Below are positions 32,301-35,300 of a DNA stretch of 35,570 nt, piece after piece. The position numbers were made by a program. Position 1 is the first letter of the stretch; every line of letters starts with the position of its first letter. This DNA is from Escherichia coli (lineage in GTDB: Bacteria > Pseudomonadota > Gammaproteobacteria > Enterobacterales > Enterobacteriaceae): NCBI RefSeq assembly GCF_003334385.1, contig NZ_QOWN01000045.1, one strand, 5' to 3'.

Positions 32301-35300
32301 ATTATAAAGCGGGCAATGCGCGAGTGATTGTGGAATGGCGCGGCTGGCGTATTTTGCCGCTGGTGTGCTACGACTTACGTTTTCCTGTGTGGTCGCGCAA
32401 TCTCAACGATTATGACCTCGCCCTGTACGTCGCCAACTGGCCTGCTCCGCGCTCTCTGCACTGGCAGGCATTGCTGACGGCCCGCGCGATTGAGAATCAG
32501 GCGTATGTGGCGGGATGCAATCGCGTCGGCAGCGATGGCAACGGCTGCCATTATCGCGGTGACAGCCGGGTGATTAATCCGCAAGGAGAGATTATCGCTA
32601 CTGCCGACGCGCATCAGGCAACGCGCATTGATGCGGAGCTGTCGATGGCAGCATTGCGGGAATATAGAGAAAAGTTTCCGGCATGGCAGGATGCGGATGA
32701 GTTTAGGTTGTGGTGAGTGGGGGTTGTGTTTAAGGACGGGGAGAGTCGGGGTATTACTACGAAAGCCCGCTCCCCGCAAGGACTGACGCCAGGTAGTTTC
32801 TGTCCATGGCTGCTTTTCGCATCTTACGTCTTAACCCTGCCTTGAATACCTTCTCATTCGTCAAAATATTAATAGCAATGTGCCGTATCCCTGAAAATAA
32901 TTCTGCTGCGTTTCCTCTTCTTATTTTGTAGTCGTCTTCATTCATTACCACGTCCAGACGCCTGTGCAGCTTATTCTCCACGTGCCAGTGGTTTCGGATT
33001 GCTGTGGCGAACTTCTCTGCGGTTAAATCAGCAGAACTGATATAATATCTGACCGTCATTTCGAGCTCTTTCTTTTGTTCTGCTATTATGGACCGAAAGG
33101 AGACTGCCACGCATAATTTCTTCAGCCCTTTCCATTCAAACGTGAAATCAATAAGTTCATCAGGGACATCGCAAACAATATGAAGACGGATTTCTTCTCT
33201 GCCGTGACTCTTTTCACTAATTGCGTAACTGTCATGCTCTGGATTATTTAATTCTTTCAGCGGAAATTTTTCCTCGAAGGCTTTATTTAGCCGCCCCTGG
33301 TTTCCTTTTACCGCGAATAAATAATCACCTCCCTGTTTTTGTATCTTCTCTGCAATATCTTTCTGGCAACCCATCGCATCAGTTGTGATGATTTTTCCTT
33401 TAATATCCAGCATGTTAAGAAGTTCAGGGATAGCTGTAATCTCATTGGATTTCTCATCCGTCCTGATCTGTCCGATGACCAGACTGTGCATTGTTGAGAA
33501 CGCACTAATGACATGAATCGCTCCCTTGCGGCGACTCTTGTCATAAGAATGCCGGAGTGTTTTTCCATCAATTGCGATGACGTCTTTATCATCTGAAGTA
33601 TGGCAATCTCGCATCCAGTTAATAAAGCACTCGTGAAATTTTGAAGGACTGATACAGGATACAACTCTGGCGATGGTATCGTGAACAGGAATACCATTTT
33701 CAAAATCACCATATTGTTTTAAAAAATCGAGATGTGTTTCCCCAAAATCCTCTATATCTTCCCAGCCTTCTGCACCAGAAATAACGGCACAAATAGTCAA
33801 CAGTAGAATATCCGATAATTTATGTTCCACTTTCCAGGCTTGTCTGTAATCGGGGATAATAGAAATATGTTCCATCAATTTTTTAAGTTCCATTTTGTTC
33901 TCCTTAATTATGTAAGGAGTATTTGATCATGTATAAGCAATAAAAAACAGCTTCAGGTAATGAGGAATATCTCAATTTTTAAACATAAAATGCGAATTAT
34001 TTAGTACAAAAAATCAGCGTTACGTGATCTTTCCCTGCCCCTGCGCTCACTACCATGGCTCTTTACCACAGCAGCCGGGGTTGTTTGGGACCGACTTCCG
34101 ACAGCAGATCCCGGTGGGCCTGCCACCATCTCTTCACAAGCTTATGCTTATTACATGCAAAACGTCCCGTTTTGCATCTTTGTGCCTACGGCACACCGGT
34201 GATCTTTCCCTGATGAGGGATATATTAACTATTGAACATTAGCGCGAATTATTTAGTGCAAAAAATCAGCATCACGTGATGCTTTTCCTGCTATTAATAA
34301 CCTCCTCTATTTAACTATATTTTTCATTGATGCAATTCGTAGATTTGAAGAAGTTCAACTGCCACATTTTTATTTTTACTATCGCAATTTTTATACCATA
34401 CCCATGCTTCCGTATTTTTTACTTTTTTTAAATCATCCATAATAAAATCCCCACCAAAAACAGTAAAATACAATATTTCCTCATTAAAAATAAAACTCAC
34501 TGCCCCCCCCTCTTTTATTTTAATTTCCGCTTCATTTGTGTTCAAATCAATTTTTTTAATTACTCCATGTAAGTTGGGTTTTGATAGTTTTTCTACGCCA
34601 CCATCAGGAGCGGGTAATATACATCGTTTAAGAACTTTAGCATTTGCACATCCAATAACCCAAATTAGAATGCACACTCCCATGTTAATCGCATTAACGT
34701 GTCTTAAAACGTTCATATCTAATTCTCTCTCCAGGATGCGAATACATCCAACTTGTCACTTTCTTACACAACTCATCTACATCTTCATTCTGTGCACGGG
34801 TACATCCCATAGTTGGTTTCCAGCCTTGTCGAGGAGCATAAGGATCGCGCAACGATGATCCCCCACCATGTAGCCATCTTGCTCTAGTATCTGTAGTATA
34901 GATCTTCGTTGTGCCATATGCTGCCGATATTCCTGATTCATTTGTCTCACAACCAACGACTTCACCTGTATATGGATCACCAGCACCACGTTGAGAACGA
35001 CGATCAATTCTATTGCTACTATCAAAAGTCATTGAATCACCTGTTTCAGGATCATAATAAATAGTCACTCCTCCAGTCATATCAGTAAGAACAAGAGGAG
35101 TTTCAGCACCTGCCCGGTCTGGAGCGGGAGGCCCATATACACTTATAACTCGTTCTAACCCCAGTGGATCAGTGTAACGTATTGGTACCAGTGGATACGT
35201 GTATAGATTTATTCCCCCCTTCAACCCTATCGGATCCTGGGTGATATACCGCCCCTGCAACGGATCGTAGTACCGGTGACGGTTGTAATACAGTCCCGAC

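Follow-up and report, generated by a model that had tools for sequence, protein, structure and literature searches.

The 430-nt interval between an Rhs immunity gene and an H-repeat transposase gene in Escherichia coli is very probably a stack of insertion-sequence left ends and a group II intron fragment

The DNA analyzed here, in the following called the window, is a stretch of 35,570 nucleotides (nt) from Escherichia coli (assembly GCF_003334385.1, contig NZ_QOWN01000045.1), and the subject is a 430-nt interval that lies between a putative Rhs immunity gene and ORF-H, the transposase open reading frame (ORF) of an H-repeat (H-rpt) insertion sequence (IS), and for which the RefSeq annotation reads 'none'. 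This interval is very probably a stack of mobile-element remnants in an ordinary arrangement, i.e., left ends of H-rpt elements together with nt 1-159 of the group II intron E.c.I9, and not a designed feature. Its partition into 33 + 78 + 16 + 159 + 144 = 430 nt is complete. The features of the interval and its immediate surroundings, in the direction of rhs transcription, are the following; loci from other genomes used for comparison are cited as L002 to L013.

34324 to 34716, minus strand: putative immunity ORF of 130 aa, downstream of the Rhs tip (ORF list).
34291 to 34323, minus strand: spacer of 33 nt from the immunity stop codon to the first H-rpt end, read from the sequence and conserved in the alleles L010 and L012.
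34213 to 34290, minus strand: H-rpt#3, a diverged H-rpt/ISEc1-like left end (nt 1-78) starting with CAGGAAAAGCATCACGTGATGCTGATTTTTTGCAC, 81% identical to H-rpt#1 and approximately 80% identical to other left ends.
34259 to 34283, minus strand: palindrome (34268-34283) plus GATTTTTTG, a terminator-like hairpin with U-tract inside H-rpt#3 (terminator pattern scan and RNA fold).
34197 to 34212, minus strand: H-rpt#2 stub CAGGGAAAGATCACCG, H-rpt nt 1-15 with one extra C, recognized by an exact 14-mer repeat and forming the 5' exon of the intron insertion.
34038 to 34196, minus strand: E.c.I9 nt 1-159, part of domain I, starting with GTGTGCCG (Rfam RF01999 and identity to the intron of strain WL297).
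32758 to 34037, minus strand: H-rpt#1, an H-rpt/ISEc1-type IS, 1280 of 1291 nt (alignment to the K-12 ydcC H-rpt).
32757 to 33893, minus strand: ORF-H, 378 aa, intact, an ISAs1-type transposase (ORF list).

The original prediction described a sequence of about 47 bp occurring twice in direct orientation, a GC-richer segment between the two copies and a perfect palindrome within the second one. These observations were reproduced: 33992-34037 and 34244-34290 agree in 42 of 47 columns of a global alignment (89%, one 1-nt indel), the same pair being reported as 37 nt at 92% in a repeat search of the window; the segment 34038-34196 has 55% GC between flanks of 29% and 34%; and the perfect palindrome AGCATCACGTGATGCT is located at 34268-34283, approximately 40 nt beyond the immunity stop codon. 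The two copies are in fact similar over a greater length than first noted, as 33960-34037 and 34213-34290 share 64 of 79 columns (81%), and a third member, the exact 14-mer GTGATCTTTCCCTG found at 34024-34037 and again at 34199-34212, had been overlooked. The main omission concerned the bracketed GC-rich segment, which its sequence identity shows to be the first 159 nt of a group II intron.

The assignment of this segment is based on several lines of evidence. The Rfam model RF01999 (group-II-D1D4-2) matches 34127-34007 on the minus strand with 81.8 bits compared to a gathering score of 36 (E = 3e-16), and the 5' boundary consensus of group II introns, GUGYG, is present as GTGTG at 34196-34192 (minus strand). 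Moreover, window 34196-34038 is identical in 159 of 159 positions to the beginning of a 1887-nt intron in strain WL297, which carries an intact ltrA and matches RF01999 with 93 bits as well as RF00029, the model of domains V/VI, with 62.8 bits; ltrA is present in L009 and L008. The name E.c.I9 and the assignment to class D are taken from Leclercq and Cordaux (PLoS One 2012, PMC3522654). WL297 and 4FM have the full-length intron at their RhsE locus, where Rhs and the immunity gene precede it and ydcC and pptA follow. In the window, RF00029 gave no match anywhere in the Rfam search, and the ORF list contains no reverse transcriptase/maturase ORF within 34038-34196. Judged by this content, the fragment is dead and cannot splice or move, because domains V/VI and the reverse transcriptase are missing.

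The sequences on both sides of the intron fragment derive from H-rpt elements. H-rpt#1 is 96.9% identical over 1280 nt, from 34037 to 32758, to the RhsE-linked ydcC H-rpt of K-12, and the first copy of the direct repeat (33992-34037) is the left-terminal 46 nt of this element. The K-12 H-rpt of 1291 nt starts with CAGGGAAAGATCATC and finishes with ...TAATCTTGCCCTG, these being imperfect terminal inverted repeats of about 13 nt; the left end as such begins CAGGGAAAGATCA, and that of H-rpt#1 is present as CAGGGAAAGATCAC at 34037. Its right inverted repeat (ATCTTGCCCTG in K-12 and WL297) is absent: homology ends at 32758 and the last 11 nt are gone. By this alignment, H-rpt#1 is a right-end-truncated copy with only one of the two inverted repeats. 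The second copy of the direct repeat is H-rpt#3, which contains the palindrome and breaks off exactly at the start of the next H-rpt end, the H-rpt#2 stub. Comparison with other H-rpt loci thereby established that the repeat does mark element ends. Of the earlier proposal that these are the terminal repeats of the H-rpt element, one part stands, since both copies are H-rpt termini; they are, however, two left ends of different H-rpt copies in direct orientation and not the two ends of a single element.

The direct repeat far exceeds chance expectation, and its homologues in E. coli genomes number in the thousands. Among 5426 complete E. coli genomes, 5335 match the interval, with a median of five places per genome; most of the matches span only query positions 1-144, i.e., they end at window 34037, and 873 genomes, laboratory B strains included, carry the interval at a coverage of at least 80%. 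Both the repeat and the bracketed segment occur in thousands of genomes, which speaks against a repeat confined to this locus that encloses ordinary intergenic DNA. Intergenic DNA that was simply duplicated in tandem at this place could be another source of the 252-bp period, and the two copies do lie in direct orientation 252 nt apart. However, they are just 81-89% identical, while the sequence that separates them agrees in 100% of its positions with a full-length intron; a third IS end interrupts copy 2 at nt 78, and each copy is homologous to H-rpt termini at unrelated loci. A tandem duplication is therefore extremely improbable.

The position of the intron within the H-rpt end is that expected for this intron. 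In WL297 the junctions read CAGGGAAAGATCACG|GTGTGCC...CTCACT|TAACGCTG, the 3' side also being given as CCTACTCACT|TAACGCTGCTTTTTTGTAC, and these sequences place the intron between nt 15 and nt 16 of the H-rpt left end. The join of stub and intron in the window is at the same H-rpt nt 15/16 position as in full-length E.c.I9 elsewhere, and the junction of the stub with GTGTGCC is also found in L009, L008, L007, L011, and L002. A hairpin loop in domain I of the E.c.I9 copies L007, L008, and L003 has the sequence UUUCGUGAUA, in which CGUGAU is complementary to the 5'-exon AUCACG; the window 5' exon ...GATCAC(C)G corresponds to this H-rpt AUCACG and thus to the homing site. In the intron of strain 042 the homologous loop is CGUCCA, complementary to UGGACG inside ORF-H (after ...CUGGACG). 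Loop and target thus vary together, which supports ordinary retrohoming into H-rpt guided by pairing of exon-binding site 1 (EBS1) and intron-binding site 1 (IBS1). A search of intron nt 1-450 for a candidate EBS2 gave no exact 6-mer complementary to H-rpt nt 1-9. H-rpt#1 retains an unoccupied E.c.I9 homing site, GATCACG|TAACGC. The putative EBS1 loop of WL297 (L009, position ~3515) is CAUGAU and not CGUGAU, for which one mispair with the AUCACG target is expected; this is the one examined copy whose ltrA is intact.

The architecture of stub, 5' fragment of E.c.I9 and nt 1 of an H-rpt is not restricted to the window. It recurs with approximately 66 nt of intron in L002, 193 nt in L011, and approximately 480 nt in L007, while L003 contains an internal piece of E.c.I9. 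When the stub together with 850 nt of intron was used as query, two dominant classes were seen, with ends at intron nt 193 and nt 159, as well as minor classes; about 104 genomes cover at least 80% of this query. In L011 even stacked stubs are present (CAGGGAAAGATCA|CAGGGAAAGATCATCG). The junctions are precise at the IS end and variable within the intron and therefore point to IS-end-specific events. The idea of an H-rpt preference for targets similar to its own inverted repeat, suggested by CAGGGGGAACGATCA in the intron at the window junction, was discarded, as the junctions of L002, L007, and L011 have no consistent motif of this kind. The L002 copy (strain LWY24) is located on the galF side of an O3 O-antigen cluster, with a JUMPstart RNA motif (4001-4125, 56.9 bits) directly upstream of the H-rpt stub; the stub carries the ~66 nt of intron and is followed by a full H-rpt, placing an intron-scarred IS at the promoter-proximal end of an O-antigen operon.

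The history that we propose for the window would comprise four steps. An H-rpt would have inserted into a resident H-rpt, namely into its left end and with the same orientation, and E.c.I9 would then have retrohomed into the left end of the newly landed copy. A further H-rpt copy, again in the same orientation, would have inserted into E.c.I9. Finally, recombination between the two direct IS bodies of approximately 1.27 kb would have deleted the rest of the intron, or, alternatively, an adjacent deletion mediated by the IS end might have done so. The outcome would be a stub and intron nt 1-159 joined directly to nt 1 of an intron-free H-rpt with intact ORF.

The alternative to the last two steps, namely truncation by IS-mediated adjacent deletion or by resolution of a tandem-IS junction by the left end of the neighboring intact H-rpt, with neither a fresh insertion nor later homologous recombination, is possible but somewhat doubtful. 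It is in line with the finding that every junction is at exactly H-rpt nt 1 with an intron endpoint that varies (66, 159, 193, and ~480 nt), and with the tandem H-rpts with closely spaced ends at the same locus in E. coli 042. However, no characterization of the chemistry of H-rpt transposition was found in the literature, nothing separates this route from insertion plus recombination, and an intermediate was not found for it.

Several observations weigh against the proposed stack and its history. A chimeric query of H-rpt#3, stub and intron beyond nt 159 matched no genome of the collection, the best matches starting at the stub. The right end of H-rpt#1 is missing and the left flanks are other mobile-element fragments, which leaves no place for a target-site duplication as proof of transposition. 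The H-rpt#2 stub has one extra C compared to the other copies. EBS1 is not part of the 159 nt that were kept, and its pairing is seen in relatives alone. The polarity between the window-type arrangement and a shorter allele, in which immunity stop and ORF-H are 178 nt apart, is given by parsimony only. The historical steps are inferred, and insertion plus recombination and IS-mediated adjacent deletion are indistinguishable from the sequence.

This shorter allele is present at the same locus in L010 and L012: the 252 bp between the repeats are missing, and a single H-rpt is of the palindromic type for nt 1-46 and of the copy-1 type from nt 47 onward. About 136 genomes carry the deletion form. 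Direct repeats of 47-79 nt are recombination substrates, and the form of L010 and L012 is as expected if the repeats recombined by a crossover within ACTAAATAATTCGC, which would delete 252 bp. This explains the 252-bp length polymorphism at the junction between the Rhs/type VI secretion region and yafV.

The relation of H-rpt#1 to the K-12 chromosome allows a relative dating of its truncation. Of this H-rpt, K-12 keeps just the final 338 nt in the form of the yafF pseudogene, which is 100% identical to the window (L005, 3099-3436), and the yafV-side junction of H-rpt#1 (window 32747-32760) is likewise 100% identical to the yafF remnant; the right-end truncation is thus older than the deletion of the island in K-12. 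A weak sigma-70-like match (TATACA, 17-nt spacer, CATAAT) at 33907-33935 (minus strand), in the left region of the H-rpt just 5' of the start of ORF-H, is by pattern match alone a candidate transposase promoter.

For H-rpt#3, a full-length element with the same tip was not found in E. coli genomes. In 100,044 species-representative genomes the sole match to the palindromic IS end was a 2.6-kb contig of a metagenome-assembled genome (MAG) assigned to Collinsella, which as mis-binned E. coli DNA is uninformative on an intact IS. This contig (L013, JAIJJM010000460.1, 'Collinsella sp.', 2619 nt) is 99.9% identical to window 33914-35570 over its positions 963-2619 and is almost certainly E. coli DNA that was mis-binned into an Actinobacteria MAG.

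The palindrome was originally considered as part of a terminator or a regulator binding site. By itself the 16-bp palindrome is not significant: first-order Markov simulations of the window yield perfect palindromes of 16 bp or more at a mean of 0.66, and at least one is present in 50% of the runs. Its context is compatible with termination. On the rhs-sense strand a stem of 6 bp with three GC pairs and a 4-nt loop (34283-34268) is followed by GAUUUUUUG (tail in the scan GATTTTTTGC), giving on the transcribed strand the stem-loop plus U-tract of a Rho-independent terminator. The extended fold, in which an upstream A-run is able to pair with the U-run, has -14.4 kcal/mol and z = -3.86, and none of 200 shuffled sequences folds as well. 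The palindromic end with its U-tract is thus predicted to be a site that may stop read-through from rhs and the immunity gene before ORF-H. The stronger view is that it is a functional intrinsic terminator of the rhs-immunity operon, or an insulator of ORF-H, that is under selection and for which the IS ancestry is incidental. The location of stem-loop and tail 40 nt past the immunity stop, the z-score and the retention of the palindromic end in the deletion alleles L010 and L012 argue for this view, whereas the shortness of the stem, the near-chance frequency of such palindromes and the lack of conservation of the hairpin as a feature of the H-rpt element argue against it. In three other H-rpt left ends the homologous position folds no better than shuffles (z = -1.2, +0.6, and +0.4), and the hairpin is therefore a peculiarity of the diverged H-rpt#3. 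Taken together, we regard selected terminator function as a tentative proposal that is rather unlikely; it would be compatible with the stack of remnants as a secondary, co-opted role.

Two suggestions remain, namely a displaced Rhs toxin/immunity cassette (an orphan tip) that left the interval as its scar, and a regulator site in the CACGTG palindrome, and both are extremely unlikely. The former can draw on orphan Rhs-core remnants that closely precede the H-rpt stub at RhsE in WL297 and 4FM. In L009 and L008 a stretch at 3190-3235 in this position resembles by eye the end of an Rhs core (…HRYYNPGQG-like) and looks like an orphan core-tip remnant between immunity gene and IS. However, in the window all 430 nt of the interval are assigned to spacer, IS or intron sequence, and no homology to an Rhs core or an immunity gene is found within it. 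For a regulator site no evidence was found, no regulator is implicated, and a second copy of the palindrome is absent from the window.

Because the architecture of stub, variable intron fragment and H-rpt nt 1 recurs and stubs can be stacked, a more general scheme can be considered, in which H-rpt might preferentially re-insert in the same orientation at resident left ends or into the intron; collapse would then regenerate an intron-free IS, and the orphan palindromic end would be co-opted as rhs terminator. We consider this scheme improbable. If true, it would be a route for an insertion sequence to purge its group II intron parasite.

The locus is the yafV-proximal end of the aspV-yafV island. 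The window runs from a thrW prophage at the proA side via proA and further genes to fadE, ivy, and yafV, which is followed on the minus strand by the ISAs1-family transposase gene, the 430-nt interval, a small ORF and the C-terminal end of an Rhs core protein. In strain 720632, with a 100% identical locus, ORF-H is labeled 'ISAs1 family transposase' and the immunity ORF, after an 'RHS element core protein', is labeled 'hypothetical protein'. The C-terminal tip of the Rhs protein (34697-35566, minus strand) contains at aa 171-271 a YkuD/L,D-transpeptidase-like domain (PF03734, E = 2.3e-4), and the N-terminus of the 130-aa immunity ORF has a lipoprotein-type signal (…LIWVIGC); this suggests a toxin that acts in the periplasm and targets peptidoglycan, with a lipoprotein as putative immunity partner. 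At the other side of the window, tRNA-Thr(CGT) (thrW, 9965-10040, minus strand) adjoins an integrase-sized ORF (8787-9950) and prophage-type genes, and positions 1-10040 are a prophage integrated at thrW beside proA. Moreover, three Rfam matches to naRNA4, a nucleoid-associated RNA derived from repetitive extragenic palindromes, with 73-77 bits (23855-23932, 24597-24674, and 27926-28003, minus strand) are intergenic and located upstream of fadE.

The value of these results lies chiefly in annotation, as a 430-nt unannotated gap is fully explained, and they illustrate that a ribozyme fragment can underlie an island of high GC content in otherwise AT-rich intergenic DNA. A new biological question is not raised, since the intron, its IS target and the fragment were described previously.

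Class C group II introns reportedly insert after intrinsic terminators, and, as in the window, the intron then adjoins a motif of hairpin plus T-run. E.c.I9, in contrast, is a class D intron that inserts by EBS1-IBS1 pairing upstream of the T-run, within the hairpin-equivalent region, and in the window the strong palindrome is on a different H-rpt copy (H-rpt#3) from the one invaded by the intron. The class C behavior was therefore ruled out as an explanation.

Compared to the K-12 H-rpt/ISEc1 copies (ydcC, yncI, and yafF, 'H-rpt min.5'), the window copy is of the same 1291-nt type with a 378-aa ORF-H and the terminus CAGGGAAAGATCA; it differs by the loss of the last 11 nt and by the two extra left-end remnants that precede it. 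On the activity of these elements, a mobilome study on bioRxiv reported no clear circles for ISAs1 and nothing further on H-rpt.

E.c.I2 of strains 042 and UMN026, a class D intron related to E.c.I9, is located in the same aspV-yafV island, where it also parasitizes H-rpt and adjoins yafV. The two introns are 70% identical overall and 76% identical over the first ~160 nt. E.c.I2 is of full length (1891 nt), is inserted inside ORF-H after ...CTGGACG and uses the EBS1 CGUCCA, whereas E.c.I9 is inserted at nt 15/16 of the left end with CGUGAU. In strain 042 (L006, 3877-8198) the 1891-nt intron with intact ltrA matches E.c.I2 and interrupts ORF-H, and a second intact ISEc1 follows in tandem after ~20 nt.

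Literature searches that joined group II intron with H-rpt found no paper, and those that joined group II intron, Rhs and E. coli gave nothing relevant. Both introns are treated in the catalogue of Leclercq and Cordaux (PLoS One 2012, PMC3522654), in which E.c.I2 and E.c.I9 target Rhs IS elements (ISEc1-5) at two different positions. 'E.c.I9-1/tr1' is listed there as full length in ATCC 8739 and as a 193-bp fragment in EDL933, Sakai, IAI1, SE11, and E24377A, and 'E.c.I9-tr2' (Tables S2/S3) as 'Fragment of 159 bp' in BL21/REL606, identical in sequence, at ~242.5 kb in 'another Rhs region'. The catalogue entry is given without a description of the surrounding stack of H-rpt ends or of the exact junctions; otherwise there is no material difference. 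Length (159 nt), locus, host IS and identity of E.c.I9-tr2 all match the fragment in the window, which is thus already known and catalogued, together with the intron and its IS target.

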